A stretch of DNA of 63,093 nucleotides, counting the filler, from Stramenopiles sp. TOSAG23-2 (taxonomy: Eukaryota), in assembly GCA_900128395.1 (NCBI GenBank). It is 6 parts of 6 records of this genome, joined end to end, with 100 filler letters (N's around TTAATTAATTAA, not from the genome) between each part and the next. Parts side by side here need not be neighbours in the genome. Positions count along the whole stretch, not along the records: positions 28,230 to 56,321 come from LT649408.1; 5 more parts are not named here. The stretch is one strand, 5' to 3'. Made by a program: the position numbers and the translations under genes. Below, one piece after another: positions 8,601-43,434 of the stretch (positions within the stretch are counted from its first letter, which is position 1; every line of letters begins with the position of its first letter). The notes beneath the pieces are model-generated. The model did not search any database. It was not told the origin of the DNA and was given only the letters and a program-made list of their open reading frames with translations.

Positions 8601-11600
8601 CTAATGTTGGTGGCATAGGATCTGCCAAACGTTTAGCACGTTCCTCGCGCTCTCTAGCTTTTTTTTCCTCTGCTTGTGCATCAACAAAAGCTTTTGGCTT
8701 TCCCATACGCCCGCAATCTTTACACTTCTCAGCTTCTGCTGGATTTTCACAATCACATATTGTACATTTCCATCCCGCTTTTACAAGCGCAGCGACACGT
8801 ATTTTTTCCATCATATCACGCTGCCACGCTTCTTCAGCAATCATTTTTTCGTTTTCCTGCTCTTCCTTCCGCTTCTCTAAAAATGCTGTTTCCGCCCTAA
8901 CAACCTTTAACGGTTTCTTTGTATCACACCCACGGCATCTTACATCAATCCTTTTGTTTGTTCGGCCACAAAATTTACACAACCATTTAAATAAAACATC
9001 TGGATTATTTGCTTCCGCTTTTCTGCGTTCCTCCGCCTCTTTCTCCATTTCTGCCAATTTGATTTTTGCAAGTTCTTCCGCATCCGCTGCATTTCGTTTA
9101 TCCTTTGCCGTAGCTTTTCCAATTTCCTCTTCTCCCTCGCCTGGGCGATAGAATAAGACGCGGACACGCCCCCATTTGCGTACAAAAAGCACTTGTCCAC
9201 GCCTACAATAGTGCAACCGCTCTGGTAATTCGCTAACTTTCAGAAGTAATTCTTGAGCCGATTCAAATTTCAGTGTCGAATCTTCAACCTCTTTTTTTGC
9301 CTGTTTCATTTGTTCTACAGCCCATTCTCTCCAACTCAACATTTCTCTCACTTGCAGCTCAACTTCTTTATGCTCCTGCTCACGAAGGACAGCGCCACTT
9401 TCCGTTTGAGCACGTTGCTCGGATGCAATGTATAATTGTTTTGTTGCTTCCTCTAATCCTTCTACAGCTACATTATGTTTATTTTGTGCCTTGTGGCGCC
9501 TTTGTAAAATTTTCTCACACCGGCTATGTTCCTCTTCCACTTCTGCCATACGATCTTCAAACATGACAAGCTCCATGTGACACTGGCCTAAGCGCCTCGT
9601 AAATTGCGCTTTATGCGTTTTCATTAATGCTCTGGCCGCACGTAATTCGTTCACACGAAACATGAAAATATCTAACCGTGCGTAGTACCCCAAAACATCT
9701 CGATGACGTGCGCGTCTTTTTCCAATAAAATCCCGTACCCTCAATGGCACTTGCAACATACCACCCATAAATGTTTCCGCTTGACTGCCTACAATTTGTT
9801 CCAAATTATCAACACCTTCGCTTACAATTTCAGTGTTCATTGCTAATGCAACTTGCTCTGATGCTTTCATATCTTCCGTTCCTGCTAATTTTGCTGCTTC
9901 TACGCGACTAAGTTGCATCGCCAAAGCGTTTGCTGCTTCTTGTATAGAATAGCGATGTCTACCGTACATTTCCTCGACATCTTTTTCAAAACGCAGATCG
10001 TAGAAGCCAGGCTCCGATTCCAAGACTAAACGCTCTTCTTTTTCTGTTCGTCTACGCTCTGCATATATTCGAATTAATTGTGCAGCGTCTTTAAAACGAA
10101 ATGCACCATGTTCTTCGTTCCTATGTCTTTGTATTGCATCTTCCAATTCTGCTGAGATGGTACATAATTGTGAAAGATCTTCATGCGATTTAGTTAACTC
10201 CATATTGCAATCTTTGCACCGAATTCCTTTGCCATACAATGTTGCCCAGTATTTTATATTTACATGTTCGCATCGGGAAACGGGTGGCAACGCTTTTTGA
10301 AAATTCGGTATTTTCAACTTGTTACGCATTAAATCACGTTCCAATGCAACTTGTTGCAGATATTCCATCCTACTTTCTTCCGCTATACGTTCGTCTTCTT
10401 CCCTTCTTAATTCTGCCGCAGCCGCCTCCGCTTCCCTATTCAAGCGCGCTTCTTCCTTTTTTCCAGCCCACACTTCTTCCCATTTTCTACGACAGTTTAA
10501 ACGCGCAACAGCAATTGTTTTTTTTATGTACTTTTCTTTTGCAACGATAACAGCAGCTTCTGGTTCTATAAATTCTGCAAATCCATCCTCCGTGCCTATT
10601 CCTTGCTTAAATTCTTCCATAATTTGCTCGTGTTGCGCCTCAAACTCTGCTTGCATAATAGGAGTTTCTGCCATGTGATATGCAGATGCTTTAGCGTCGG
10701 TAATTGTTTTCTTCATATCCTCTCTCATTTGTTTTCGCAATTCTTCTGCATCTGCCATTCTTTGGTTTTCTGCATCTTGTAAAATTTTCATTTCTCTTTC
10801 AGCAGCTTCTGACCGCGCATTTTTTTCAACCTCGAAACGTATGCGCCGTTTCTCCTCCATAACTGCCCGTCTTGCATCAACACTGGCCATATCTGATTTT
10901 AAAATAACAAATCGACGTTCAGTCAAATTTTCCCATTGCACTGGACTTCCTTCAGCGCCATAATAACAGACAGAATGTAAGACTTGTAAATTCGTTCCTC
11001 CTTGTGTCCATTGAACACGCATTTCAACAACTGATCCAAGTCTCCATCTCTCCTCCTCTTGAAAGTAAAGCTCTAATCGCGAGCCTACAAGCTCCCGTGC
11101 CATTTCCAAATCAACTTGAATTCCCCGGCGTTTACGCATTATAAAAGCCCGCTTCGACTGTTTAATTTTTTTCGCTAATCGTGATTCCTTATACTTCTTT
11201 TGGATTTCGGATACTTTTAGGCGCTTTTTTCTTTCCCTAGCACGCCTCATGTTTTTCAAAGCTTGAACTAAATCAGCCGTTTGTGGGCGCAAATTGTTTT
11301 TCATTTCATTTGACATTTCATCGTCCTCGTAATCATCTACCTCGCTTTCCTTTCTGTCTTCCAAGGAAAATCGATTTCGTTTTTGCTCTAACTCTTCCTC
11401 GCTTTCCTCACCAGGGCGTCTGGGCTTATCCTCATTTGCTGCAAACATATTTGGTTGATCATCAAATGAGCCCATCGACGATTGGTTTGGTTGCTTAAAC
11501 GAAGTACCATCATCTTTTCCTGGTGCACCGGTTATCTGGCGATCAGGCTCTTCGTTTATTGTTCGGTTTGCCGCGTTTGGCGCTTTATGCCCAGCACGTG

Positions 11601-14466
11601 GCCACTTTTTGACTTCTCTCTTTTTCTCACGTTCCTTCGCTTCTATTTCATCTTCACTATCCGAATAAATTTCATCAATTTGTTGTTGATCTATATCTTC
11701 GCCTTGCTCCATTTTTCGCAATTCCGTAATCCTATCTGCTCTCTCTTTTTCTCGCTTTTTAAATTGGTGATCTGCCATTTTGTGATTCTTATCGTTAACT
11801 TTGTCGCTTCGCATTTTTTCCCTCATATCTGCTTCTTGTCTAGCTTGTGCTTCTCTATCCGCAATCTTTCTATCATACCCCATTTGTCTTTTCAATTCAT
11901 CCCTTAAATAGGCTGCTAAATGTTCTTTTTTAAATCGTTGAAAGTGTCCATTTACGATTAAACTATCCCATGTAGTTACTTCATCACCGGCATTTTCTAA
12001 TTTTATTAATTCCTCTAAAAGTACAGCACCACGTGATTTCCCTTGCTTTCGCTCAATTCTTAATTTTTTAACATATGAAGACAGTACACGATTTGTTTTA
12101 GGATCTATAAGCTCCAATGGTTCCGGTTCAATTTGCCGATACCGTCCACGTGTAACAAGCATGTGATCATCTATACTTTCAGTGGAACTAGCCATTTCAA
12201 AACGATACGTTAATTTATTTCCTTGATACTGCCGACTTACTGAATACCTAACTCCAGCTTGACCAGGTGCTCTTACATTATTAAATTTCCCAACTAAGTC
12301 CAATGACATAGCACTACCACCCATGCGGACGGTAATAAAATCATTGGGATCCCCTGCAGCTGGCGCTAGCTCATCAGCTTTTGTTACTAAAAAATCTATT
12401 TGCCATAAACCTACTTTTGGGAATTCAATGCGTCCTTGTATGACACCAAAAGTTGCTTTTCCTAGAATTACATTTTCAACATTCCATTGATCGACACCAG
12501 CTGTTTGTGCCTTGTCTCTACTGCCCCACCAATTTACCCAACCTTCATGTACAATATTTACTTTTCTTAATTTATCATTTTTCCAAAATTTTTTAACAGC
12601 TCCTTGGATATCACCATGAGCCATTTCCCCCATAGTATGTCGTAATCTACCTAATATATTTCCCAATCTAGCTTCTCCTAATTCAACTACTGCCCGTTGT
12701 TCCTGTCGACGATGTTTTGCTTTCCACTCCTCATGATTCAATCGTCGTAAATCTGCTAGGCGCTTGTCTGCTAATTTGGACTCTTCCTTTAATATTTCTA
12801 ATTTACTACCTAACAAGACATCCCTAATTTCACGTTTAGACGCTGCTAATTGATGTCGTAAAGATGGAACTTCTCGAATAGATCGGCCAATTACCATTGG
12901 TAACGATGGAACAAATTCTTGCTCTTTCTCTAAACCAGCTTCTGCTTTTATTTTTTTCTCACGTATTACGGCTAATCTTGGTGCAATTCTTAACTCTTTC
13001 ATAGCTGCTTCATCACGCTCATCTGCTAAATTTTTACATCGAATTTCTAAATCTTTTTTCTCGCGCAACAATTTCATAATTCTTTCTTTGCGCTCATCTA
13101 CAATCACACGCTCAAAGCGATATGCTAAACGTCTACCAACATGCCGTTGTCCTACACCAGCAAGTTCATCTTCAAACTCTTTTTGTTCCAAACGATGCTG
13201 TGCTATATCTTCAGCTACTTTCGTAACCCTTTCTTCCAACGTTAATCGTTCTTCTTCTGCCTCTAGCTGAGCCCGCTTTAGCGTTTCGTATTCCTGTGTT
13301 AATTTACCTTCTTTTTGTTCTAAATCATAATATGCCGTTTTACGCTCCTCAAATGCAGCATCTGTTGGGCCTGTTCCAGCCAATGACATCGATAATGTAT
13401 GATCATCAACACCTGGTACATGGCCAGTTCTAGCATATGATTTTTCATTAAGTGGTTTTCCAAAAATTCCTAATCGTGGAGGACCATCTGATATATCTGG
13501 TATACCTCGTTCTTGTATCTTTAACATCATTTCAACATCATGATCTTCTTGTTGATATGATTTGCCAGATTTTTCATCTTCTTGTTGCGCTTCTAATTCT
13601 TGTCGTTTTAACATTTCGACAACTGCTCTCTCTTCATCAATCGCTAATTTTTTTAATTTTTTTGCCATCACATTACGTTTCTTCTTCAAAGCAAATTGTC
13701 TTCTATTTTCTGCTACTAGTCTACGACGTGCTTCTTCCTTTAATTTTCCTTGTATATATTTTTCTCGCTTTGCTTTAATCATATTATTAAATGCATCTTT
13801 ATCCCGTTGTTTGTACATATCTTCTAGTGCATTTGCCCTTTCTTTTAAAGGTTTTTCATATTCAACCATTGCTCGTCGCTTTTCCTCTTTTTTTATTTCT
13901 TGCAATCGTTCATATCGTCTAATTTTGCGAGCTTTTTCGCGTTCATCGAATAACTTTGTGGCTATAAATATATATAGTAATCAATGTAAGAAAGATGGTT
14001 AGTAAATGTGCATTTATGTGGATATTCGATGATAATAATATAACTTACCTTCTGTCTGTTGTTGATCGATTCGTTCTCTATGTTCCCTAGCTTTTCTAAG
14101 TTTACGTGCAAATGGTGGTTCCACAAATCGAGCACCTTTTGCTGCTAATACTTTTGCTTGCATTCTAGCCTTTTCATATGATTTACCTGCAAACTTAATA
14201 ATTTGATCTGATGTTGGCAATTTTAAAGGTGGTTTCTTGTCAATATCACGTTTACCTCCCAACCTGTCTAATTTTGATTGCAGATCAGAACGATATGGGT
14301 TTACAAAGTTTTTCGCCTCCCGTTCTTCTCGTTCCCATATTAGTTCCATTTTTCGTATACTAAATTCATCTGGATCTAAACCACGATCGATCCATTCGTA
14401 TCGTGCTTCATCTTCCAATTCATCTCGATCGGCACCAAGGCCTTCAAGTCCACCACGTCCAGCCAT
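5641..14466 (-). CDS. Giant (~2900 aa) coiled-coil protein with two RanBP2-type zinc fingers, a Tudor-like segment and a C-terminal Cys/His-rich domain; two exons
   Basis: Intron 13962..14048 (GTAAGT...TATAG on the - strand) joins ORF 14014..14466 in frame to the 2754-aa ORF. Motifs WLCKFCGRTN..CRGC and WKCTICDCEN..CKDC, VGSRLELYF..W, and C-terminal CLHC..CEFHPG..WSCC..GC...WH. Confidence 0.8.
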
Positions 14467-19341: not shown

Positions 19342-22300
19342 ATGGATATAATAGGCAAGATGTTTCCATTTACACTTGTCAAAAAAAGTCATACAAATAA
19401 ATATAATATTAATAATTTTGTATCATTCCATCGTCCTTTTTATAACGTTTTATTGTTATTATTGTTATTATTCATTTTATTTTTAGATAGTAATAATAAT
19501 CGTTTTGGTCACATTTTTGTATATGCGGATGATCTAAATGGATTACCAAACCCACCACACCGACCGACATTTGTTGCGAAAACGGTAACAGCTACTACAG
19601 CAACTTTAAACTGGGCACCAGTACAAACGGATTCATCACCAGTAGTAGATTCTTTTGAAGTACAATTTAAACCTATATCGGATACGAACTGGCAAACAGC
19701 TTCTAGTACTGTTGGGAAGAGAGATAGTAATAAAGGGTTGAATGAGATTCAAATTATAACAACGCGTGCTGATGTAGGCCAGGATATTAATGATGGTTGG
19801 TTCCGTCTCTCATTGCATCATAAAGGATTAAATGATTTCGACCCGGAATCAGCAACTATGACTGATCGTATGCCATATAACGCCACTGCTTTGGAGGTTG
19901 AATATCAATTAAATATGTTAGCAAATATACAATTTACAGGCACAACAACTCATGTAACTCGTTCGTTACCAGATGCACAAGGTGGTTATCGATGGGCAGT
20001 CTCGTTTGAGCTTGGTGCAAATACCGTTGCACGAGGGGAGCAAAATGCACCATTCGATGGTACCTTACCAGCTGAAGATATACCATTACTTATATTGCAA
20101 CAAGAAAGTATTTCAGCTATATGGTCTGGTGGTGGGCTACAAGTACACCTATCAGAAGTTCGTAAAGGATCAACATTAGGTGGTGCGTGTGAGCAAACGA
20201 CGCCAACGCATGCAGGTGTTACTGGTCCTGATTATGAAAATGTTTTCATGGGTACACCAATTTGTAAATACAAAGTCGCATCGTTGCTAACGAATACACA
20301 TTATCATTTTCGTATACGTGCACATAATTTATTAGGATGGGGTCCATATAGTGGAATTAGTGAGCAAATATTAACCTTACGAGCATTTGCACCATTGACT
20401 CCAGCATCGCCAATGTACAGTTCCGGCAATAGTACCTCGATAACAGTACGTGCAGTGCCATTCGGCAATTTAGCAGACGGTGGGGAACCAATTACAGGAT
20501 GGGATTTTCAATATAGAATTGCAAATTCAGGTATTGCATGGATTCCATTTTCAGGCGGTTCCGCAAAAAGCACTTCCCCATACATGGAAGTTGCACGTGG
20601 TACTTCAGCAACAGTTGTTGGCTTGGAAAGCAATAGACAATATGAATTTCGTGTCCGTGGGCGGAATGTTATTGGGTATGGTCCATGGAGTGCAGGTAGT
20701 GAGCCAATGTCCACCTTAAGTGGTATTTCAATAGCACCATCAACCCCCGTAGTCGTTGAAAAAAGTATTTCTGAAACTACGATGGAATATCAATTTTTAC
20801 CACCAAGTGAAACAAATGGTGATACAATAGAAAAATATGAAATACATAGACGTAGTACATCTACGATAGAGAAAGGTGGGATATGGCATAGAGTTGGATA
20901 TATTGATGCAGAAAGTACAAAAGGTTTAAATGAAATACAATGGGTTCATACACGGGCGGATGTTGGTGAAAGCATTAATGATGGTTACTTTCGTTTGAAA
21001 TTTAATCATGGAGGATTAACAACAGCAGATCCTGAAAAAGGGACGATGACGGAGCGTATAAAATACGATGCAACTGCAAACGAGATGAAGCATGCTATTG
21101 AAAAATTAAAAAATGTACAAAAACTAATACGGGTTGAAAGGCACGGGCCAAATGTACAAGGTGGGTATTCATGGGAAGTCATGTTCGATGGAGAACATGA
21201 GAAAACACATGGTAATTTACCTATGATGCAATTGCATGACGAAGATATTACTGCACTTTGGACCGGTGGTGGTAGACAAGTTTACATCACGGAAGCACAA
21301 CGGGGCAGTACGAGGACCATATTGAACCAAATTACATTTAAATTGACAGGTTTGTTACCATATACTGTATATGAAACTCGTGTCCGATCTATTGGTAAAA
21401 ATGGTGTATCCACTTGGAGCAGTCCTCACAGTATTCCTGTCCGTACTAAACCAAAGTTAATGCAAGTATTGATAAAAGCACCTACCTCTACTAAATCTGT
21501 ATTGTTACTTCAAGGAAGTTTAAAAGATGCACCAAATACAATGGATCATGATTTTGCATCTGGTGCTTCATATGGAGGGGGTCTAGGTCAAAATGGGGGT
21601 AACGGCTTTGTAGTTATTACATCCTATTTGTACAACCAACAAAAGGCACCACAAACACCATTCTTTTACGTATGCCGGGGGCAGCCGTGCGAGGGTTACC
21701 CGCAGACATACACCGTCCCAGAGTCTACTGTTGAGGGAAGTAGCGTTGCTTTTGTTGAAATTAAAGCGTGGGGTGCTGGTGGTGGCGGTGGCTGTGGTAA
21801 TTTCACGCAAGGGGGTGCTGGTGGTTATGCGCAAATGAGAGCAAATGCTAAGTCTGGGGATACTTTCATTATCAGAATAGGAGGTGGTGGTGTTGGTTGC
21901 ACCGGGGAAGAAGGTGGCAATTCTGGCTACAACGGTGGCGGTGTCGGGGGCAAAGGTGATTTTGGTGGTGGCGGCGGTGGTGGAGCGACTGATGTATGGA
22001 AAGGTACTGAAATGGATCAATTGGTTTTAGTCGCTGGTGGCGGTGGTGGTGGTGGAAGTACGGATTATTGTTGTGCACATGGTGGTGCCGGTGGTGGTTA
22101 TGAAGGTGAAATGGGGCGTACTCCTCGAGCAACGCCGAAAGATAATACTGGAATCAATAAGAGAAAAGAATTCAGTACGCCAGGCCGTACGGATCCTAGA
22201 GATGAAATCGGTTTTGCTGCATATCATCAACATGTTGATATGGGTTTTGCCCCTGGAGCAAATTTGACTGAGTTGTCGACATCTGGTACAGGTGGTTCGT

Positions 22301-24921
22301 TAAGACAACTTAAAGGTGGCTTGCCTGGTGCTTCTGGTTCTTGGGAATATTCATTAGCTGGGGAAGTCTACCCATTATCAATAGAAGGAAGGCCTAAAAT
22401 TTCTGAAATCAGAGGTAGTAGCCCAGCTTCCGTAGCAACTGCTGGGCGAAGAGGTCAAGGGGGTAGAGGTCAATCTGGTAAAGAAGCAGGTGGTGGTGGA
22501 GGTGGTGGGTATTTCGGTGGTGGGGGTGGTGGAGCAGGTGTCGATGGGTCCGGTGGTGGTGGTGGCTGTGGATTTGTGAATAAATCTATTGTCTTTGACG
22601 AGGAGCATACATTTAGTTCCAGAGAAGCTTCTACACCAGAAAAGCCTGTAGCACCTCGTATAGATTATATGGATCATCGTTTAATTCGTTTATCTTGGAC
22701 ACCACCAAAATTTGGTTACTTGGCTGGACCAGCTAGTTATATTTTAGAAGTAGCTAGTGGCCCATCAAGTACTGATTTCAAAGAGATATATACCACTACT
22801 GGTCAAGGTACTACTGGTTTCAGAGGTACTATTATGCCAGATACGGATCAAACATCAATCAGCGAAGATGAGGACGAAGATCGCTTACTTTATACGTTCT
22901 TCGTTGAAGATAAATATACGGATGAAGTTGTTTCGGATATGATGCAAAGACCGATTTACCGTTTTCGAGTGCGTGCAACATCGCGTGCTCGTGGGAGTGG
23001 TTTTGTAAGTGAGCCTACCATCGTGGAAGTTCCAGGGTTACCATTGAATGAATGGACGAGGCTTGTGCCACGTCCATTCATGCTTGCCAGTGTTGGTGGT
23101 GGAAGACGTTTACATAATGGCCCAACATCTGAATTTGATCTCTATCCAGCTGCTAGAAGAGGCCACACGGTCGTGATGATAGGTGGATTTATGTATTTAT
23201 TCGGTGGTTGGCAAGAAGGATATCGTTGTGGCACACCATTTCAAAATGAACACAGGGCGGGTTTAGAAAATATTGATCCGGCGTTCCCTACACGGCCTTT
23301 TTGCAGGCGAAAACGGGGAACATCCAATGAATTATGGCGCTACGATCCTATAACCAACACATGGGCACAATTACGGACTCAAGGAACTTTGCCACCACCA
23401 CGTGAAATGCACACTGCCGTGGTGGATACTGCTAATCCTGGCTCGTTATATCATGGGAAGATGATCATATTTGGTGGCCATGGAGGTGGAAATGGCACAA
23501 CCAAGGATGGTGGACCAGGAGGATTGGAATATTTTGATGACATCTGGGAAATGGATCCTGATAGATTAACATATGAAACTACTGATGGGGGAGGAAAAAA
23601 TAAACCAATCCAAGATGGACGAAATTTATTTGTCAGTACATTTGCAAATGTAAGCTCAGATCGATGTTTAGTCGATGTTGATGTCACGGTAAACATAAAG
23701 CATGGATGTACACGTGATCTAATCATCGAGCTCTTAGGACCAAGCCATCGACACCAAGGTGTAAATCATCGAGAATCACAGCAAAGACAGCATGAACGTG
23801 GTCAATTTGATACTGGATCTGAAAGTGCGGCTGATCCACCACAAGCCAGGGACCAACGGACATTATTATTTGATGGTTTCGATGGAACAAGTTCTGGTTG
23901 CGGGGTCAATTTAGAAAACTTACGCTTTGATGATCGTGCAAACCGTACTGTTGAAGAATGCTGCCCAAGTCCATTTAAAGGCTCGTTTAGACCTGTATCC
24001 AAATTAAATGTTTACAATGATTTGCAAGTAAGAGGGGAATGGTCCTTACGAATCTATGATCAACGGGCCAATTCATTGAATGGTTCATTGGTAAACTGGG
24101 AATTGCATTTCACCATGCGTCCATGTGAGGCACGGTACAAATGGACAGATTTAAGTGCGCAAGTTAAAAGCAATAGTAATGGAGCGATCCCAAGCCCTCG
24201 TTATGGACATACTACCGTCGTAATCGATCATCAAATGTTCCTTTGGGGTGGACATGCATGGTCGCGCTATAAAGATTTATGGCGTTTGAATATTACGAGT
24301 AGAACATGGTATAAATTAAATACACGAGAGTACAGAGCACCAGAGCGTTATGGTCGTGCATCTGTCATTAGCCCATGGCAAATTTTGAATTTCGGTGGAT
24401 ATATGCACACTCGTTTTGCACCATTTCTATGGAAATATGATCCAATTAACTTTAAATGGACGCGTTTAGATACGTTCGGCGTTCCGGGTGGCCCAGTGAC
24501 GTATACACACCGTAGTACAGAGGAACCAACGCCGACGCTATATGGGGAAAATATGCCAGTAGCAAGGCAAATGACATCGCTAGTGTTAATTGGATTGAAA
24601 GGTACGCCATCAAGACAACGCGGTATATCACATCCGAAAATTTTGATGTTTGGTGGATATGATGGTATCGCATATATGGATGATTTGTGGCAATTAGATT
24701 TAAAATTGTTAGGAATCGATCATGATATGATTGGTGGTGGTGAAGAAGAAGTTAATTGGCGAAACAATTGTATATGGAGATTAAAAAAAGGATCTACGGA
24801 AGATAATTTATGGAAGAGTACATGTGATAGCCAAGGGAGTCAAACAGCAAATTGTTTAATTGATGATGTGTTGACGAGAGCATATTGTAGAAAGCAATAT
24901 CAAGGAATTATGAATTTTTAA
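19342..24921 (+). CDS. Secreted or membrane-anchored multidomain protein: FN3 repeats, Gly-rich domain, Kelch repeats, proprotein-convertase P domain
   Basis: Hydrophobic N-terminal stretch. FN3 motifs (YHFRIRAHNLLGWGPYS, YEFRVRGRNVIGYGPWS), GGGGG tracts (IKAWGAGGGGG, LVAGGGGGGG), Kelch motifs (RRGHT..MYLFGG, PPREMHT, PRYGHT) and a P domain (VTVNIKH..DL.I.L..P ... GEWSLRIYD...GSLVNWEL). Confidence 0.85.
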   Translation: MDIIGKMFPFTLVKKSHTNKYNINNFVSFHRPFYNVLLLLLLLFILFLDSNNNRFGHIFVYADDLNGLPNPPHRPTFVAKTVTATTATLNWAPVQTDSSPVVDSFEVQFKPISDTNWQTASSTVGKRDSNKGLNEIQIITTRADVGQDINDGWFRLSLHHKGLNDFDPESATMTDRMPYNATALEVEYQLNMLANIQFTGTTTHVTRSLPDAQGGYRWAVSFELGANTVARGEQNAPFDGTLPAEDIPLLILQQESISAIWSGGGLQVHLSEVRKGSTLGGACEQTTPTHAGVTGPDYENVFMGTPICKYKVASLLTNTHYHFRIRAHNLLGWGPYSGISEQILTLRAFAPLTPASPMYSSGNSTSITVRAVPFGNLADGGEPITGWDFQYRIANSGIAWIPFSGGSAKSTSPYMEVARGTSATVVGLESNRQYEFRVRGRNVIGYGPWSAGSEPMSTLSGISIAPSTPVVVEKSISETTMEYQFLPPSETNGDTIEKYEIHRRSTSTIEKGGIWHRVGYIDAESTKGLNEIQWVHTRADVGESINDGYFRLKFNHGGLTTADPEKGTMTERIKYDATANEMKHAIEKLKNVQKLIRVERHGPNVQGGYSWEVMFDGEHEKTHGNLPMMQLHDEDITALWTGGGRQVYITEAQRGSTRTILNQITFKLTGLLPYTVYETRVRSIGKNGVSTWSSPHSIPVRTKPKLMQVLIKAPTSTKSVLLLQGSLKDAPNTMDHDFASGASYGGGLGQNGGNGFVVITSYLYNQQKAPQTPFFYVCRGQPCEGYPQTYTVPESTVEGSSVAFVEIKAWGAGGGGGCGNFTQGGAGGYAQMRANAKSGDTFIIRIGGGGVGCTGEEGGNSGYNGGGVGGKGDFGGGGGGGATDVWKGTEMDQLVLVAGGGGGGGSTDYCCAHGGAGGGYEGEMGRTPRATPKDNTGINKRKEFSTPGRTDPRDEIGFAAYHQHVDMGFAPGANLTELSTSGTGGSLRQLKGGLPGASGSWEYSLAGEVYPLSIEGRPKISEIRGSSPASVATAGRRGQGGRGQSGKEAGGGGGGGYFGGGGGGAGVDGSGGGGGCGFVNKSIVFDEEHTFSSREASTPEKPVAPRIDYMDHRLIRLSWTPPKFGYLAGPASYILEVASGPSSTDFKEIYTTTGQGTTGFRGTIMPDTDQTSISEDEDEDRLLYTFFVEDKYTDEVVSDMMQRPIYRFRVRATSRARGSGFVSEPTIVEVPGLPLNEWTRLVPRPFMLASVGGGRRLHNGPTSEFDLYPAARRGHTVVMIGGFMYLFGGWQEGYRCGTPFQNEHRAGLENIDPAFPTRPFCRRKRGTSNELWRYDPITNTWAQLRTQGTLPPPREMHTAVVDTANPGSLYHGKMIIFGGHGGGNGTTKDGGPGGLEYFDDIWEMDPDRLTYETTDGGGKNKPIQDGRNLFVSTFANVSSDRCLVDVDVTVNIKHGCTRDLIIELLGPSHRHQGVNHRESQQRQHERGQFDTGSESAADPPQARDQRTLLFDGFDGTSSGCGVNLENLRFDDRANRTVEECCPSPFKGSFRPVSKLNVYNDLQVRGEWSLRIYDQRANSLNGSLVNWELHFTMRPCEARYKWTDLSAQVKSNSNGAIPSPRYGHTTVVIDHQMFLWGGHAWSRYKDLWRLNITSRTWYKLNTREYRAPERYGRASVISPWQILNFGGYMHTRFAPFLWKYDPINFKWTRLDTFGVPGGPVTYTHRSTEEPTPTLYGENMPVARQMTSLVLIGLKGTPSRQRGISHPKILMFGGYDGIAYMDDLWQLDLKLLGIDHDMIGGGEEEVNWRNNCIWRLKKGSTEDNLWKSTCDSQGSQTANCLIDDVLTRAYCRKQYQGIMNF

Positions 24922-36006: not shown

Positions 36007-39000
36007 ATGTTAACTATTATATCTTCGTCAGTGAAAAAAAATGTTTTCAAACAACATGTTCATTTTAAAAAAATCAATAATAACAAAAATGTAATAATAA
36101 CAACACGTCGTACTATGGCGACAATGAAAAAATGGAGAGATTATATTAAAGAAAATCCATACTCATATGAACGTGGAGGGGAAGGATATAAGAAGATAGA
36201 GGAGATTATAAATAATTTAAGTCATTCGGAATTGCAAATTTTCGTTAATTTAAGTGGTGCTGCAAAATCATTTGGTTCATTGAGTAAAGAAGCATGGTCC
36301 GTAGAACATTTAGGTTTTAATATTGCAAGAGAAGTTGTCGGTAGACGATTAGGTGTCTCAATGGAAGAAGCACCAGGTCCAAGGTCAAATTCTGGGGAAG
36401 GTGGACAGCTAATGGATGATCCAAATTCAAAAGCATCCATTGTGCAAGTCGCTAGTGGACGTTGGATGGGTGATTCGCCATTGAAATATCTAGCCGATGC
36501 AGAAGAGATTGATATCAAAATTGCACAAGGTGTTAAACCAGGCGACGGTGGACATTTGCCGGGAACAAAAGCTACGCCATTAATTGCGCGTGTGCGCGGT
36601 GCAAGGCCTGGAAGAGATTTATATTCACCACCACCACACCACGACATTTACTCCGTAGAAGATTTAGCACAACTTATACATGATTTGAGGCAAGTCAATC
36701 CTCAGGTAAGAAAAATATGGGTGAAATTAGCATCACGTAGTGGTGTTGGACCGATTTCATTAGTAGTAGCCAAAGCAGGTGCTGGCGTTGAAGTGACTGG
36801 ATTTGGTGGTACTGGTGCTGCAAAAGCAGAGAGCAAACATTTTTATGTAAGAGACAATACACCTGGAATTTTGGAGGTGCGAAATAGTTTAATATCAGAA
36901 GGTTTATGGCCAATAGATTTAGCAGCCAGTGGCCGTATACAAACAGCAGAAGATATCGCACGTGTCGTTTTCATGGGTGCGAATCGTATCAATATGGGCA
37001 CACCACTCATGCTTGCGAATGGATGCGTGAAAGCAGATTCTTGTCAAAATGATGATTGTCCAGTAGGTATTGCGACGCAACAAGAGCATTTAATAGAAAA
37101 ATTCCCAGGAAGGCCAGAAAATGCAATACGTTTCCTTTCTTTTCTATCAAAGCAAACCCAACGAATATTTGATCAATATGGATTAGATTTTCATAGTGCA
37201 CGAGGCCGTGCTGATTTGTTACAAGTTGAAATGAATGAGTCAATACGTACAGGATTGCCTGAATTTTTGAAGCTGCCGGAGCCTCCAGCATGGGCAGCAT
37301 CACTATCAAAAACGCAACGTGTACCGCATGATTTGTTCGATAAAACAACGGAGCAAAAATTAATTGCAAATATTGCATTGTTACCAGATTCCTTAAACGA
37401 AAAAATTGTTTTGAATGAATCTATAACAAACAAGCATAGAACGTTTGGTGCATTGCTTTCGAATCATATCGTTCGAAACAAAGATTTTGAAGAGAAAATT
37501 AATAAAAATGGATTAAGGATTAATTGTGACGGTGTTGGCGGGCTAAGTTTTGGCACTGGATTACCAAAAAACGTTGAATTAGTTGTAGATGGACCGGTTA
37601 ACCATGGTGTAGGCAAAGCATTAAGTGGCGGAACAATCATAGCGCAAGTGATGGGCGATCAAGCTGGATATGGTGCTGGAAACGGTACATTGATCACCCG
37701 CTCAATCGGCGATCGTGCTGCAATTCGGAGTTATGAATTAGATGTCTTAGTCGAGACGACTGGTGATATGAGCTCTTGTTACCGTACTGGTGGCCATTTT
37801 TTCGTTCTAGGGCATCCATCACATTACAATAGCAGTAGTACATTTAAAGTTGGTAATTATAAAAGTATGGATCTATGGTCAAATAACCATGCAATGGGTC
37901 CAGGTATCGGTGGCGGTATGGGTGGTGGCGTAATTGTCCTACCACGTCAATTGCATGAGGAGAATGTATCAAATATGAGATATGCACCATCATTACAAAA
38001 TGTTTTGCCCCGTGATATGAAACCAGAAGAGACGCAGTTGCTTGTAAATTTATTGACTCAAGCAAATGGTGCTTTAAAAGATTGCCAGCTGATGGAAGCA
38101 CTATTAAATGAAGGCGAAACGTTTTTAAATAAACATATGGTTGTCCTTGATCCAGTTGCTGCCCAACCAATTGCCAAAGGAAAACATCATCCAAATGTTA
38201 CATGGAAAAAGCACGAATCAGAGAATTCCGTATTAGCAATCGATTGGGAAAAAGGAAACGAACGTTCAATGAGTGCCTTGAATATTGCGCAAAGTAAAGG
38301 ATTTTTCGATGTATTTCAAGAATTAAGCGGGACAAGTCTTAAAAGAGAAGAATCCAGCGCTTGTGGTGTGCATTTTTTAGGTGCAAAACAAGGATCATCG
38401 AAAGAGGTAGTTGACCGGTTGTTACATAGCTTACATTTAATGGCTCATCGTGCCGGTTATGCTGATCCAAAATCATGTGATGGCGCTGGCATAAATTTAA
38501 AAATTGACGCTGAATTCTGGAAAAACAAGTTCCCAAATTTTAAAGATGTTTTTGAGGACAATAATTATGCCATCGTTGCATCGTTTATTCCAGAGGAAGC
38601 AAAAGCGGGGGAGAAATATATCGCGCGTTTTGAAAAACATTTAATAAATGAAGGTTTGACATTAAGTGCAAAGCGTGAAGTTCCGATGAATAGAGAGCAT
38701 TTTGGTGTTGTTGCCACTACACAGCAATTACCTATCATGCAATTTTTAGTACTGCGTCCAACTGATATGCCCAGTGCTAAATTTGAGGCGGCATTGTTAC
38801 GATTTCAAACACGCATGGATTATGAAACATTAAAATCAACGTGGGACCTAGAGAAAAAACCTTCTATCATATCAGCAGAGCCGGATGGTAATGTTATTTA
38901 CAAAGGTTTAATGGCTCCAAGCGATTTAGCAAATGCATTTCCAGATTTAAAAGATCCATTATGTAAAGCATCTCGCGGTTTAGTTCATGATAGATTTTGT

Positions 39001-42000
39001 ACAAATGCACCAAAAGGTTTAGATAAAATCCAGCCACTATCCATTATAGCTAATAATGGGGAAATGAATAGTCTATCATCATTATACCAATTTATGACAA
39101 ACGATAGTAGCTTTTTAGATTTTCTGGGCCTTGAAGAGAGTGCCAAGTTATGGGACGAAACGTTGGAAGGGGAAGTTCCATTGAGCGATTCGTACATGTT
39201 GAGTGTCTATTTAAGATACTTATTAGCAACGCAGCCGGAAAAATCATTTGTGGATCATATTGCCTCGTTGATACCGAATGTTGTAAATAAGCAAGAAGAT
39301 CCTGAGCGTTACTTATCGACATTTTTAGCCGCTGTAAATTATGTCGGTCCTTTAGCCGGCGTATTTTCATGGTCTGGTAAAGTAGTAGTTGGTGTTGATC
39401 CAAATGGTTTCCGCCCATTATGTGCTACTGAATTTACAAATGAAGAAGGTACAGAGTTTTTGCAATTTAGTTCAGAATGGATAACGGATATTGACGGAGC
39501 AAAGTATTCCGTCGTACATCCAGGCCAAGTATTAGAATTAGATGCTACAAATGGTAATATTATCCCAGCAAATATGGGCGAACCGTGGAATGAGCATCCG
39601 GCAAATAGCAACAGCAAAGGGACGAAAAAGAAAAAAAGTGAGGGGACTTTTGGAATATATTTTTATCCTCCAAAGAGCAAGAACGATGTTTCACCAATAC
39701 AGGATTTAAATACTGAAATTCTTCATGCATTAAAACCAATGGTTGGATGGAATCAGGATAATGATAAATATGTCAAAGATCTTTGCCGTGGTAAACTGTC
39801 GATTGAATCCATGGGCCATGCAGGGCCAACTGCTAGTGAAGTTCGTGGCAATGTTGCGCCAAATAGTTTTGATTTGCTAAATCATAGTTTTGCGCAAGTT
39901 AGTAACCCTCCATTGGCGTGGAGAGAGGAAGGTGATTATATGTCCTTGGATACGCGTGTTGGTCCATATCTATTGCCGTCCCCTTTTCTATCTAATGCAA
40001 TGATAAATTCGTTGCAAGAAAAACTAGAGTCAAAAGTAGTATCCACCACATTTCCAGTGCATACAATGGCACCAGGAATGAGGGTGTGTCTTCAACGCAT
40101 CGTAAATGACGTTGTAGAAGCAGTTGAAGAAGGAAAACGATTTATAGTCTTATCAGAACTTGATATTAGTCCTAGCAACGGACCATGCCCATTAAATCTA
40201 GTCGTTGGTTCTGTTCATCAATCCTTGCTTAAATTAGGTTTGAGAAAGGATGTACACTTGTGCGTGCAGAGCATTTCCGCTTTGCGTCCAGGTCATTTTT
40301 CACAATTATTAGCAATGGGTGCTGATACAATTCACCCAGTATTACTGCTAGATCCTCGCGTAAATGCATCATTGGAGGAAACTAATACCGATGAAGATTC
40401 TGTAAATATTTCTATGGAAGAACACTCTGCGAATGTTTTATCTGGCTGTGACGAAGGTTTGAAGCATTATATGTCAACGGTTGGTTTAGGAACTATCAGT
40501 TCATATCGTGGCGGATCTCACATTTGGCAAGCAGAAACATTGAATACTGAAGTTGCGGATTTAATGGGTTTGCAACCACCAAGATTTTCCGGTATTGGCT
40601 TTGGAAGATTAGCGAAATGGCTGTATACCACTTGGTTTTTCCCATCTAAAGAAGGACCAGGGTTGTACCAATACAACGGACAACGTGCAACTGTTCCTGT
40701 TTGGTCAGCTGAATACACTCGTGCAGTAAGACGTATGGCAGCAGATGAAAAAGAAGATGAAACCATGATCCAAGATATGGAAGTTGCTTGCGACAATGTC
40801 AATGTAATTAAACGTAGTGCTTGGAGTATGTCCCGTATACCATCAAAAATGTGGGGGCCTGAAAATCCAATGAATATATGCGTAGTAGGTGGTGGCGCAG
40901 CAGGGTATTTTGTAACTAACGAATTGCTTGAAGCGGATATCCCAGCCAATGTCACCATGGTAGAAAAAAATTTAATCAATGGTGGTGGTGTTGTATATCG
41001 TGGCCTTTCTCCATTGCATCATTCAACGAAACGAAATACGTTGAAAAGGCTATTAAATATTCATAAAAGTGGAATAGAAAAAGGCGCCTTAAGCTATGCT
41101 GGTGGTGTTCAAATAAATAAAGGAGATTTAAAAAAGTTATTATCCACCTTTAGTGTAGTCATTGATGCATCTGGATCATCAACGGCAAATCACTTGAGTT
41201 GTCCAGGTCATCAACATGCAACCGAAGCGGCAGAAATTTACAGCAGATACAATCAAATCATGGATCCAACCTCAATAAAAAGTAGTGTCGACTCCCATTG
41301 GCATGGTTCTTTAAATCGCTTTAATCGCGCTACGGTAGTTGTTGGAGGTGGAAATGTTGCATTTGATATTTTATCTGTATTGACATTGAGTAAACATTTA
41401 TTCGAACCACATACAATTAATCAAAAATTTATCGAAGCGCGAGATGAATATGGCTCTACACATGTTGTGTCATTAATACGCAAGCAACCGTGGGATTTAG
41501 CCAGTGACGTCCATGTTTTGAAAGAATTTTTTTCATTAATGCAAAAATCAAATGTCAAGATTCAAGTTAGTGGTGTTAGTAAATTGGAGCCTACAGATGA
41601 CATGACAGAGCAAGAACGGGCAAAATTAGAATTATTTTTAGAATATGTAGATAAAGAAGATAAATTGAATGAAGAATTTTGGCCTGAAGCAAGAGATGGT
41701 CGTAGTGTCCATTTCCGCTTCGGACAAGAAGTGTCGAATATTGAACGTTTAAAAGGTGGTTTAAAAGTTACCATTGGCCAAAATGGACAATACGTGAAAG
41801 AATTTCAAGCATACCAAGTGATTGAAGCTATGGGTTATGTTGGTGAGGATAAATTTGAAATATTTGGGGAAAACAACGGTGCATTAGAAAGCTTATCAGC
41901 GGAAGAAAAAAAGCAAATATATCAAGCCGGGTGGGCATTTAAACCTGGGAATTTAGCATCTGCTGAAGGTTCTGCGAAGAAAATTGTTGGAGAAATCACA

Positions 42001-42570
42001 CGAAATTATCACATGGGAGTTTTCCATGGATTGGGCAAAAGCTCTATTCAAGGTGCACAAATTGAACCGCTACTTGCCTCTGCACCAGTTGATACAAGTA
42101 CACAAGAAAATATTTTTAATTATTTACTTGAAGTTGGTCGTATCGAGGAGGCGGAAGATTATTTCAATGCAAGATCATTTGTTAGTATGGAAATGGCAGC
42201 AAATTTTGAAAGGTCTTTGTCAAATATACACACGCCACCAGCAGTTGATAGCGTTGATGATGTATTGGTTGGCGCAGTATCGAATGTTCGTGATGGCTTT
42301 TTCGGCTTTACGGATGATGGTGGTGATTTTATTGAATATGCAGCAAATGATGCACGTTTAGATGAAGTTATTGGATGTACTGGTAGTTGCGATGGTGCAA
42401 AAACTTGTTTGGATTGTGTTGTTGATGTAATTGGAAAAGAGGTAGATGCAGATGCATCAGAAACTAGATTATTGGCTCAAATTGGGATGTTTAAACCAAA
42501 TAGAATTTTGAGTTGTTGTCATACGGCAAAGGAGGTTGAAAAATCAACTGTTAAGTCAGTTGAGGCTTGA
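36007..42570 (+). CDS. Circularly permuted glutamate synthase-like protein fused to an adrenodoxin-reductase-like domain and a 2Fe-2S ferredoxin
   Basis: Motifs in order: SFGSLS/SNSGEGG/QVASGR/IKIAQGVKPGDGGHLPG/PPPHHDIYSVEDL/GGTGA/CX5CX4CPVGIATQ (FMN + 3Fe-4S); GLSFG/GKALSGG (GXGXG); SACGV/HR/DGAG/HDRFCTN/NNGE/SDS/NGFRP (GATase type 2); SMG/FAQVSNPP/ISSYRG (central); VVGGGAAG and GGGNVAFD (pyridine nucleotide oxidoreductase); CX5CX2C...RILSC (2Fe-2S). Confidence 0.92.
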   Translation: MLTIISSSVKKNVFKQHVHFKKINNNKNVIITTRRTMATMKKWRDYIKENPYSYERGGEGYKKIEEIINNLSHSELQIFVNLSGAAKSFGSLSKEAWSVEHLGFNIAREVVGRRLGVSMEEAPGPRSNSGEGGQLMDDPNSKASIVQVASGRWMGDSPLKYLADAEEIDIKIAQGVKPGDGGHLPGTKATPLIARVRGARPGRDLYSPPPHHDIYSVEDLAQLIHDLRQVNPQVRKIWVKLASRSGVGPISLVVAKAGAGVEVTGFGGTGAAKAESKHFYVRDNTPGILEVRNSLISEGLWPIDLAASGRIQTAEDIARVVFMGANRINMGTPLMLANGCVKADSCQNDDCPVGIATQQEHLIEKFPGRPENAIRFLSFLSKQTQRIFDQYGLDFHSARGRADLLQVEMNESIRTGLPEFLKLPEPPAWAASLSKTQRVPHDLFDKTTEQKLIANIALLPDSLNEKIVLNESITNKHRTFGALLSNHIVRNKDFEEKINKNGLRINCDGVGGLSFGTGLPKNVELVVDGPVNHGVGKALSGGTIIAQVMGDQAGYGAGNGTLITRSIGDRAAIRSYELDVLVETTGDMSSCYRTGGHFFVLGHPSHYNSSSTFKVGNYKSMDLWSNNHAMGPGIGGGMGGGVIVLPRQLHEENVSNMRYAPSLQNVLPRDMKPEETQLLVNLLTQANGALKDCQLMEALLNEGETFLNKHMVVLDPVAAQPIAKGKHHPNVTWKKHESENSVLAIDWEKGNERSMSALNIAQSKGFFDVFQELSGTSLKREESSACGVHFLGAKQGSSKEVVDRLLHSLHLMAHRAGYADPKSCDGAGINLKIDAEFWKNKFPNFKDVFEDNNYAIVASFIPEEAKAGEKYIARFEKHLINEGLTLSAKREVPMNREHFGVVATTQQLPIMQFLVLRPTDMPSAKFEAALLRFQTRMDYETLKSTWDLEKKPSIISAEPDGNVIYKGLMAPSDLANAFPDLKDPLCKASRGLVHDRFCTNAPKGLDKIQPLSIIANNGEMNSLSSLYQFMTNDSSFLDFLGLEESAKLWDETLEGEVPLSDSYMLSVYLRYLLATQPEKSFVDHIASLIPNVVNKQEDPERYLSTFLAAVNYVGPLAGVFSWSGKVVVGVDPNGFRPLCATEFTNEEGTEFLQFSSEWITDIDGAKYSVVHPGQVLELDATNGNIIPANMGEPWNEHPANSNSKGTKKKKSEGTFGIYFYPPKSKNDVSPIQDLNTEILHALKPMVGWNQDNDKYVKDLCRGKLSIESMGHAGPTASEVRGNVAPNSFDLLNHSFAQVSNPPLAWREEGDYMSLDTRVGPYLLPSPFLSNAMINSLQEKLESKVVSTTFPVHTMAPGMRVCLQRIVNDVVEAVEEGKRFIVLSELDISPSNGPCPLNLVVGSVHQSLLKLGLRKDVHLCVQSISALRPGHFSQLLAMGADTIHPVLLLDPRVNASLEETNTDEDSVNISMEEHSANVLSGCDEGLKHYMSTVGLGTISSYRGGSHIWQAETLNTEVADLMGLQPPRFSGIGFGRLAKWLYTTWFFPSKEGPGLYQYNGQRATVPVWSAEYTRAVRRMAADEKEDETMIQDMEVACDNVNVIKRSAWSMSRIPSKMWGPENPMNICVVGGGAAGYFVTNELLEADIPANVTMVEKNLINGGGVVYRGLSPLHHSTKRNTLKRLLNIHKSGIEKGALSYAGGVQINKGDLKKLLSTFSVVIDASGSSTANHLSCPGHQHATEAAEIYSRYNQIMDPTSIKSSVDSHWHGSLNRFNRATVVVGGGNVAFDILSVLTLSKHLFEPHTINQKFIEARDEYGSTHVVSLIRKQPWDLASDVHVLKEFFSLMQKSNVKIQVSGVSKLEPTDDMTEQERAKLELFLEYVDKEDKLNEEFWPEARDGRSVHFRFGQEVSNIERLKGGLKVTIGQNGQYVKEFQAYQVIEAMGYVGEDKFEIFGENNGALESLSAEEKKQIYQAGWAFKPGNLASAEGSAKKIVGEITRNYHMGVFHGLGKSSIQGAQIEPLLASAPVDTSTQENIFNYLLEVGRIEEAEDYFNARSFVSMEMAANFERSLSNIHTPPAVDSVDDVLVGAVSNVRDGFFGFTDDGGDFIEYAANDARLDEVIGCTGSCDGAKTCLDCVVDVIGKEVDADASETRLLAQIGMFKPNRILSCCHTAKEVEKSTVKSVEA

Positions 42571-43434
42571 GATTTTATCATATTTTTATATTATAATATT
42601 ATATATATTTTTAGAAAAGTATAGGAATTATTTCAATTATCATGAGTAAATTAAAAAATAAAATTTTAACTGCGTAAAACTAATATAATATTATTTTTAT
42701 ATATCTTGAAGAGTAGGAATTATCATGAGTAAATTAAAAATAAATTATGCGTAAATTAAATTATTATAAAAGATAAAAAAAAAATAAAAAATATACTTTT
42801 GTATTTAAATTTATAATATTAATAGGATATCTGGTTATATTTTATAAAAATGAAAAACTTTTTATGATCCTTTTTTCTTCTTGTTGTCTCTAATATCAAT
42901 TTTCTGAGACGCGATTACAAAATACTTTTTTTGACAAATATTGTGTGTGTTTTGGAAAAAAAAAAATAAAACACTTTGCCCATGTATTCCCCATTTTCTC
43001 TAAATTTTGATTTTTTTATGATCCTTTTTTCTTCTTGTTGTCTCTAATATCAATTTTCTGAGACGCGAACAATAATACGTTTTTTCATTAAAACATATTT
43101 TTTGGTACAGTAGAGGGAGAGAGAGGTTTTTTTATTGTTCAAAATACTTTTTTTGACAAATATTGTGTGTGTTTTGGAAAAAAAAAAAAAAACACTTTGC
43201 CCATGTATTCCCCATTTTCTCTAAATTTTGATTTTGTTATTTTTAATATTATATATAATATACTACGTGTGTATAAAAATATACTTCCTATGTTTGAATT
43301 AATCAGTTTGTTCCTCTTCAGTTGAAAACACTTTGCCCATGTATTCCCCATTTTCTCTAAATTTTGATTTTGTTATTTTTAATATTATATATAATATACT
43401 ACGTGTGTATAAAAATATACTTCCTATGTTTGAA

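Follow-up and report, generated by a model that had tools for sequence, protein, structure and literature searches.

A glutamate synthase gene with permuted domain order

Glutamate synthase (GOGAT) is a key enzyme in the assimilation of nitrogen. Its division into NADPH-, NADH-, and ferredoxin-dependent classes, with archaeal split forms besides, is considered settled. Here, we describe a rearranged glutamate synthase gene (P0001) from Stramenopiles sp. TOSAG23-2 (assembly GCA_900128395.1), found in a 63,093-nucleotide stretch of joined genome records, hereafter the window, within the part derived from LT649408.1. The gene lies on the plus strand at window positions 36007-42570, as do all of its features given below, and consists of one uninterrupted, intronless open reading frame (ORF) of 2187 residues.

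Pfam and profile matches give the following domain order for the window protein: a flavin mononucleotide (FMN) domain, GXGXG, GATase_2, a central domain, an adrenodoxin-reductase-like domain, and a 2Fe-2S ferredoxin-like tail. The FMN or 2-oxoglutarate synthase domain covers residues 22-393 (36070..37185; Pfam Glu_synthase, E 3.2e-74) and is followed by the GXGXG beta-helix domain at residues 473-643 (37423..37935; Pfam GXGXG, E 2.8e-19). The class II, or N-terminal nucleophile (Ntn), glutamine amidotransferase begins only at residue 786 and runs to residue 1187 (38362..39567; Pfam GATase_2, E 5.6e-41, profile positions 1-403 of 420), with the glutamate synthase central domain at residues 1261-1504 (39787..40518; Pfam Glu_syn_central, E 2.1e-34). 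All four domains of the GOGAT large subunit (amidotransferase, central, FMN, and GXGXG) score above the Pfam cut-offs, yet their order departs from the canonical GATase-central-FMN-GXGXG seen, for example, in P0006 and P0097. Because the order is instead FMN-GXGXG-GATase-central, the gene is a circular permutant, with the Ntn cysteine in mid-chain. The NCBIfam GltB equivalog matches the window protein only in part, with 500 bits against a cut-off of 1047, and the GATase_2 score is 141 bits, compared with 544-587 bits in canonical GltB. We refer below to module A (FMN/3Fe-4S synthase plus GXGXG), which forms the first part of the chain, and to module B (predicted Ntn glutaminase, central domain, reductase flavoprotein, and 2Fe-2S ferredoxin), which forms the second. 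The N-terminal 44 residues (36007..36138) are basic, contain many hydroxylated but no acidic residues, and are a possible mitochondrial presequence.

The internal cysteine and its surroundings

Positions 38341-38400 encode KREESSACGVHFLGAKQGSS, starting with the codons aaa aga gaa gaa tcc agc gct tgt ggt gtg cat ttt tta (KREESSACGVHFL). The codon tgt at 38362-38364 specifies Cys786, which falls on position 1 of the GATase_2 profile, so that both the translation of the ORF and the start of the Pfam match bear out the initial annotation, which had placed the catalytic cysteine at this codon and inside the chain. The glutamine-site motifs that it described as kept downstream are likewise present, namely HR (H814-R815), R..TN (R996..T999-N1000), NGE (N1017-G1018-E1019), and SDS (S1060-D1061-S1062).

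It had also likened EESSA/CGVHFL (the slash marks the proposed cut) to the canonical processing site, and the resemblance holds well beyond this one protein, since most of the 29 related sequences described below, from eukaryotes and bacteria, carry E-x-D-A directly ahead of the cysteine, and this motif is also the one found before Cys1 in the propeptides of 103 canonical GltB sequences. Cys-Gly occupies the catalytic position in 29/29 family and 103/103 canonical sequences, which argues that the placement of Cys786 is more than chance. Upstream of the cysteine, Glu is found at position -4 in 19/29 family members versus 100/103 canonical sequences, and Asp at position -2 in 20/29 versus 90/103. 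Position -1 is Ala in 23 and Ser in 4 of the 29 family members; the 103 canonical sequences have Ala in 61, Ser in 27, and Asn in 15. Several family members retain, farther upstream, the motif (L/M)Y.P. The proposed scissile site in the window protein, assigned by its motif match to canonical GltB, is E782-S-S-A785/C786 (38350..38364). The tryptic peptide across Ala785/Cys786 is EESSACGVHFLGAK, and the semi-tryptic form starting at Cys786 is CGVHFLGAK.

An internal Met start for module B was considered and rejected. The nearest Met in the window protein lies 31 residues upstream of Cys786, and the relative P0003 has no Met in the 60 residues before the cysteine.

The join between the modules carries traces of both former chain ends. 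Canonical proteins end shortly after the motif F(I/V)K(V/L)xP, which aligns with FIKLDP in the family and with VVLDP at residues 712-716 of the window protein (38140..38154), which marks the natural end of module A; P0149, a reversed relative, ends 8 residues after it. The distance from this motif to the cysteine is 21-106 residues in the family, with no conservation of sequence, as measured in the 19 of 29 family sequences in which the motif was matched (the value of 21, from P0134, looks spurious), and it is 68 residues after VVLDP in the window protein. Alignment and AlphaFold2 delimit these 68 residues (718-785; 38158..38361) as a linker. Since a C-terminal motif stands upstream and propeptide-like residues precede the cysteine, we read the join as an old C-terminal tail fused to an old propeptide, the outcome expected if a gene had been duplicated in tandem and then trimmed. 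Residues 641-785 of the window protein have no Pfam match.

An AlphaFold2 model of residues 441-1240, based on a 22-row alignment, reached a mean predicted local distance difference test (pLDDT) score of 80.6 and a predicted TM score (pTM) of 0.82. Blocks over GXGXG mostly exceed a pLDDT of 80, values fall below 50 at residues 723-747 and 757-784, and confidence resumes at Cys786. Glutamate synthases are the top Foldseek matches to the model (1ofe, E 7.9e-25), and the Ntn domains of PurF, GFAT, and EgtC are matched as well, which identifies the Ntn fold. Of the two domains in the model, Foldseek aligned the GATase part alone (about 420 columns), which is to be expected when an aligner that follows sequence order is applied to a permutant.

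Conservation of the two active sites

We compared the family with 30 GltB sequences drawn at random from the 103, counting as near-invariant those columns that are identical in at least 29 of the 30. The GATase domain has 77 such columns, of which 46 are the same in the window protein. All 23 family rows in this alignment keep C786, G787, R815, D825, G826, G828, R890, H994, R996, and T999, and 22 of the 23 keep N1000, N1017, G1018, S1060, D1061, R1136, P1137, S1156, and E1157. R815, R996, T999, N1000, N1017, G1018, S1060, and D1061 belong to motifs that we take to be glutamine-binding or to form the oxyanion site.

FMN and GXGXG together have 182 columns that are near-invariant in canonical GltB, and the window protein agrees with 123 of them. 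The 3Fe-4S ligand motif GCVKADSCQNDDCP (37021..37062) aligns with near-invariant canonical Cys columns, and its cysteines C340, C346, and C351 are kept in 21/21 family rows. The glutamine site thus appears to be under purifying selection and both active sites look maintained. That these residues persist in so divergent a family speaks against decay of the glutaminase, and the activity that we infer for the window protein is the conversion of glutamine plus 2-oxoglutarate into two glutamate.

The electron-supply module

The initial annotation had assigned a reductase and a ferredoxin to the C-terminal part of the protein, an assignment that stands at the level of the family, while in the window protein alone the ferredoxin is only weakly matched. 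For the C-terminal 627 residues of the window protein the best PDB match is adrenodoxin reductase (1cjc, E 7.3e-7), with GltD weak; the family profile sharpens this picture, matching 1cjc at E 9.6e-42 and FprA at E 4.6e-37 but GltD only at E 2.6e-7. The N-terminal part of this adrenodoxin-reductase/FprA-like reductase, which would use flavin adenine dinucleotide (FAD) and NADPH, is recognized as Pfam Pyr_redox_2 (residues 1623-1814; 40873..41448) and contains GGGAAGY at residues 1626-1634. The domain probably extends to about residue 2050. Fer4_20, the GltD-type 2x[4Fe-4S] domain, has no Pfam match in the window protein, which is thus not classed with GltD.

Behind the reductase, positions 1972-2069 of the family profile match ferredoxins of the adrenodoxin, putidaredoxin, and Etp1 types, with E values no better than 1e-5. 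In the window protein we see the adrenodoxin-type 2Fe-2S ligand pattern C-x5-C-x2-C...C (CDGAKTCLDC ... LSCCH) at residues 2128-2171 (42388..42522), where the Fer2 match is weak (E 0.04). Fer2 is found at E 2.3e-6 to 7.5e-5 in three relatives (P0128, P0131, and L002).

Relatives and natural rearrangements

A word-indexed search returned, besides an identical record, four relatives with the same domain order, of which P0003 is 63% identical to the window protein and P0004, P0005, and P0008 about 30%. An exhaustive HMMER search with residues 441-1240 gave 1457 matches. Among the best 150 of these, 19 were scanned with Pfam, and 17 of the 19 have module A followed by module B (P0125-P0139, P0146, and P0151, with three incomplete proteins); P0151 is labelled Paulinella micropora in EukProt. 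The other two are a canonical NADH-GOGAT (P0181) and a reversed fusion (P0149). Some members carry the database label “glutamate synthase domain-containing protein 2/.../1”.

The same A-B fusion also emerges from prokaryotic genomes. Our scan found it as single ORFs of 2092-2123 residues in four bacterial records (two Gammaproteobacteria, one Legionellales, and one Legionella sp.), together with a partial copy in one Coxiellaceae record. Flanks were scanned for two of these loci, L001 and L004, and hold ordinary bacterial genes, e.g., those for phosphoenolpyruvate (PEP) synthase, purB, truA, argG, argH, and argS. In genomes G001-G003 the permuted gene is the only strong match to PF01645, the family of the FMN domain. 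Basic, Ser/Thr-rich N-terminal extensions resembling mitochondrial presequences are seen at L001:5866-12207, L003:5935-12303, and L005:2100-8375. As copies from Gammaproteobacteria, Legionellales, and Legionella bear such extensions, the sequences hint that the permuted gene moved from a eukaryote into these bacteria.

A separate observation concerns the Legionella sp. genome, which has, besides the permuted gene, a 555-residue frame on the minus strand (G005:C1:19920-20873) with a stand-alone Glu_synthase FMN domain (266 bits).

A metagenome scan with motifs common to canonical GltB yielded one evident family member, L081; the remaining 79 loci were judged by match span and on that basis are mostly canonical-looking. 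In the ESM Atlas, matches were confined to generic clusters of glutamate synthase, none scoring above 0.89. In a quick IQ-TREE run, with the careful search unfinished, the 27 family rows group together to the exclusion of the 7 canonical rows (support 100), and the window protein and P0003 sit together on a long branch.

Two rearranged forms bear directly on the relation between the modules. P0149, also of 2187 residues, reads GATase(100)-central-reductase-ferredoxin-FMN-GXGXG, that is, module B and then module A, with the catalytic cysteine at residue 100 after a presequence-like head of 99 residues; it is known as a database protein, from a putative gene model. On a single-cell assembly contig of Candidatus Marinamargulisbacteria (L002:5722-12149), the modules are two overlapping genes, again B and then A. 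The first gene, 1441 residues as the longest frame, encodes GATase_2 from Cys97, the central domain, Pyr_redox_2, and Fer2, and the second, of 700 residues, encodes Glu_synthase and GXGXG. The two overlap at TAATG, with GGAGG 9 nucleotides before the second ATG and a stop in the second frame two codons upstream of that ATG. The start of each gene resembles a presequence, so this record may reflect transfer or contamination. The partition into [FMN+GXGXG] and [GATase+central+reductase+ferredoxin], at which the initial annotation had proposed that the protein divides, thus occurs naturally, both as two genes and as a reversed fusion. These split and reversed forms show that the covalent link from A to B is apparently dispensable and that module B is predicted to function with its cysteine near the N terminus.

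Transcription across the join

The join region is present in 20 public runs from 12 studies, 15 of which are recorded as RNA. Four runs (X1-X4), all marine or seawater metatranscriptomes, were examined for RNA evidence. An RNA contig of 5008 nucleotides from X2 is gap-free over 37701-42578 and bridges the Cys786 site, so that both halves are encoded on one message, and an X3 contig at 35964-36401 runs across the ATG of the ORF. No joints inside the ORF and no intron were seen in contigs of the four runs. Several contigs end near the join (X1 at 38337 and 38358, X4 at 38368 and 38383, X3 at 38074 and 38406); as contig ends cannot reveal RNA ends, we draw no inference from them.

Just 3' of the ORF, the bin at 42706-42790 has a very high X1 word depth of 106, rising to ~550 locally, and several X1 contigs run out there into unrelated sequence. 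Such a profile resembles that of a short element that is either repeated or very abundant.

Proposed self-cleavage and alternative explanations

Precursors of class II amidotransferases (MEROPS C44) are described, in class-level statements, as losing the residues before the cysteine autocatalytically and in cis (PMC9140057, PMC3207474), and the Ntn mechanism is stated to need a free N terminus (PMC9140057). Cys786 is internal to the translated chain and has a conserved catalytic module on either side, as in two-chain Ntn precursors. We therefore consider a mechanism in which, after folding, Cys786 would attack the Ala785-Cys786 peptide bond in cis and so free its own alpha-amino group. Residues 1-785, minus any presequence, would become chain A and residues 786-2187 chain B, the two presumably staying packed against one another as in canonical GltB. 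Glutamine would then be hydrolysed at Cys786, with the ammonia tunnelling to the FMN site, and electrons would probably pass from NAD(P)H through FAD, 2Fe-2S, and 3Fe-4S to FMN. Cleavage at Ala785/Cys786, most likely autocatalytic, is the best-supported reading and one that we consider somewhat more probable than its negation. In its favor are the live-looking glutamine site, the propeptide motif kept before the cysteine, the seemingly flexible tether between the modules, the occurrence of the family in bacteria, and the natural two-gene form.

Several observations weigh against this reading. The propeptides predicted in the 103 GltB sequences measure only 12-59 residues, and we know of no class II amidotransferase that has been shown to release a folded module of ~700 residues. 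Our literature search, which reached class-level statements and had subscription enzymology outside its scope, found no report of autocatalytic propeptide removal in glutamate synthase itself. The most divergent clade of the family consists of the window protein and P0003, with the sites ESSA/CGVH and ESDA/CGVH, and in both of them His takes the place of the Gly of CGVGF that is present in 100/103 canonical sequences (His789 in the window protein; 38371-38373). The 29 family sequences include two near-duplicate pairs (P0130 with L004, and P0135 with L081). The split form is known from one record, and a search of 30 relatives of the genome in question did not recover it; these have canonical GltB instead. 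Finally, in the quick, unfinished tree the split and reversed forms nest with weak support among the A-B forms and are for that reason uninformative on ancestry.

If the protein stayed uncut, its amidotransferase domain might be catalytically silent and act as a scaffold for an ammonia-dependent synthase or in regulation. The domains do score far below their canonical counterparts, as shown by the GATase_2 bit score, and 31 of the 77 near-invariant GATase columns differ in the window protein. The differing residues, however, are not catalytic: across long branches, 22-23 of 23 rows still have the Cys, Arg, Asn-Gly, and Asp that make up the glutamine site. The propeptide motif is retained as well, and we consider a silent domain unlikely. 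We judge it a little less probable still that a separate protease, e.g., mitochondrial processing peptidase (MPP), cuts at or near Ala785/Cys786. MPP is described as cleaving internal sites of mitochondrial polyproteins (PMC8734313), and the N termini of the window protein and P0149 look presequence-like; yet the window protein lacks an Arg at -2 or -3, its nearest one being at -6, the motif conserved ahead of the cysteine is of the GltB propeptide type and not of the MPP type, and freeing the cysteine would demand an exact cut at -1. Moreover, the A-B fusion is also found in bacterial records, which come without mitochondria, and its presence in four of them, among bacterial housekeeping genes, argues that a mitochondrial peptidase is not the general mechanism.

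Cys786 could alternatively act as nucleophile from within an uncut chain, provided that some other group took over the role of general base from the free alpha-amine. In favor of this, His789 stands in the window protein and P0003 where a near-invariant Gly would lie, three residues after the cysteine, but this His is found in only 2/29 family members, and the Ntn mechanism is said to require a free N terminus (PMC9140057). To our knowledge, an internal nucleophile of this kind would also be without precedent, and we give this possibility a slim chance. That the locus is an assembly or gene-model artefact, with two genes or two copies wrongly joined, we consider very improbable indeed. No point in support of an artefact was found; the frame is unbroken over 2187 codons, the join is spanned by RNA-derived sequence from an independent run, and independent eukaryotic and bacterial records have the identical order.

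Autocatalytic cleavage at Ala785/Cys786 leads to a broader proposal. The permuted enzyme would be the first class II (Ntn) amidotransferase to have an entire folded catalytic module as its “propeptide”, autoproteolysing at Ala785/Cys786 into a two-chain enzyme. Its family, common to marine protists and Legionellales-like bacteria, would add a fourth type to the known GOGAT enzymes, one that draws its electrons from a built-in chain of adrenodoxin reductase and adrenodoxin type instead of from GltD or free ferredoxin. Taken as a whole, we regard this proposal as evenly balanced between holding and failing.

Comparison with known enzymes

The closest known systems are GltB (1ea0, 2vdc, 6s6s, 7mfm) and ferredoxin-glutamate synthase (1ofd, 1ofe, 1llw), which have four domains in common with the window protein and match the family profile at E 1e-285 to 1e-250. 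They also share with it the residues of the glutamine and FMN sites, the cysteines of the 3Fe-4S cluster, and the propeptide motif. In contrast, the Cys1 of GltB-type enzymes is residue 786 in the window protein, identity is only about 30%, and the family is a separate long-branch clade. Eukaryotic NADH-GOGAT, a GltB-GltD fusion such as P0181, is likewise a single chain of ~2100-2200 residues with its own pyridine-nucleotide reductase; NADH-GOGAT, however, has the canonical order, with Cys46 near the N terminus in P0181, and a GltD module with the 4Fe-4S domain Fer4_20, where the window protein has an adrenodoxin-reductase-like domain and a 2Fe-2S tail.

For the predicted cleavage, analogies are found among other two-chain Ntn hydrolases. 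Penicillin G acylase, gamma-glutamyltranspeptidase, and glycosylasparaginase are described as turning an internal nucleophile into the N terminus of a second chain by cleavage in cis, with both chains kept (PMC3207474, PMC9140057). These enzymes are of other families, have Ser/Thr nucleophiles, and form the first chain from within the same catalytic fold, whereas the first chain of the window protein, whose cleavage is predicted, would be a separate redox-catalytic module. The tandem precursors cut by MPP (Arg5,6, Atp25, and Etp1) are reported to give two functional polypeptides that assemble (PMC8734313). There, the cut is made by a separate peptidase at an internal presequence-like site, while the permuted family is also bacterial and has the GltB propeptide motif at the site. 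Archaeal glutamate synthase domains are reported to work as separate polypeptides (PMC8097209), but these are single-domain ORFs of the canonical lineage; L002 has two multi-domain modules, of which B has its own reductase and ferredoxin.

In a full-text literature search, with most subscription journals outside its scope, we found neither a permuted or rearranged glutamate synthase nor a fusion with adrenodoxin reductase. The permuted family adds a rearranged GOGAT architecture with a different built-in electron supply. With it, one can test directly whether a class II amidotransferase buried far within a polypeptide is able to activate itself, with the fused, reversed, and split natural forms as built-in controls. 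It also sets an annotation trap, since rules based on domain content classify these proteins as ordinary GOGAT and overlook the permutation as well as the change of reductase. The family should be of interest to enzymology as well as to nitrogen-cycle annotation.

Other features of the window

Neighboring ORFs of the window encode eukaryotic domains, among them NOT2/3/5, Kelch, ankyrin, WW, SH3, and PHD, and include a poly(A)-binding protein with four RNA recognition motifs (RRMs) and MLLE. On the minus strand, 5641-13905 holds an ORF of 2754 residues without a match to any Pfam family at E 0.001 or better; this stretch shows strong GC and AT skew, and its G+C content of about 0.41 is above that of its surroundings. 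On the plus strand, an ORF of 1859 residues at 19342-24921 joins fibronectin type III, ALK/LTK glycine-rich, and proprotein-convertase P-domain segments with Kelch propellers, a domain mix that looks unusual for a protist protein.

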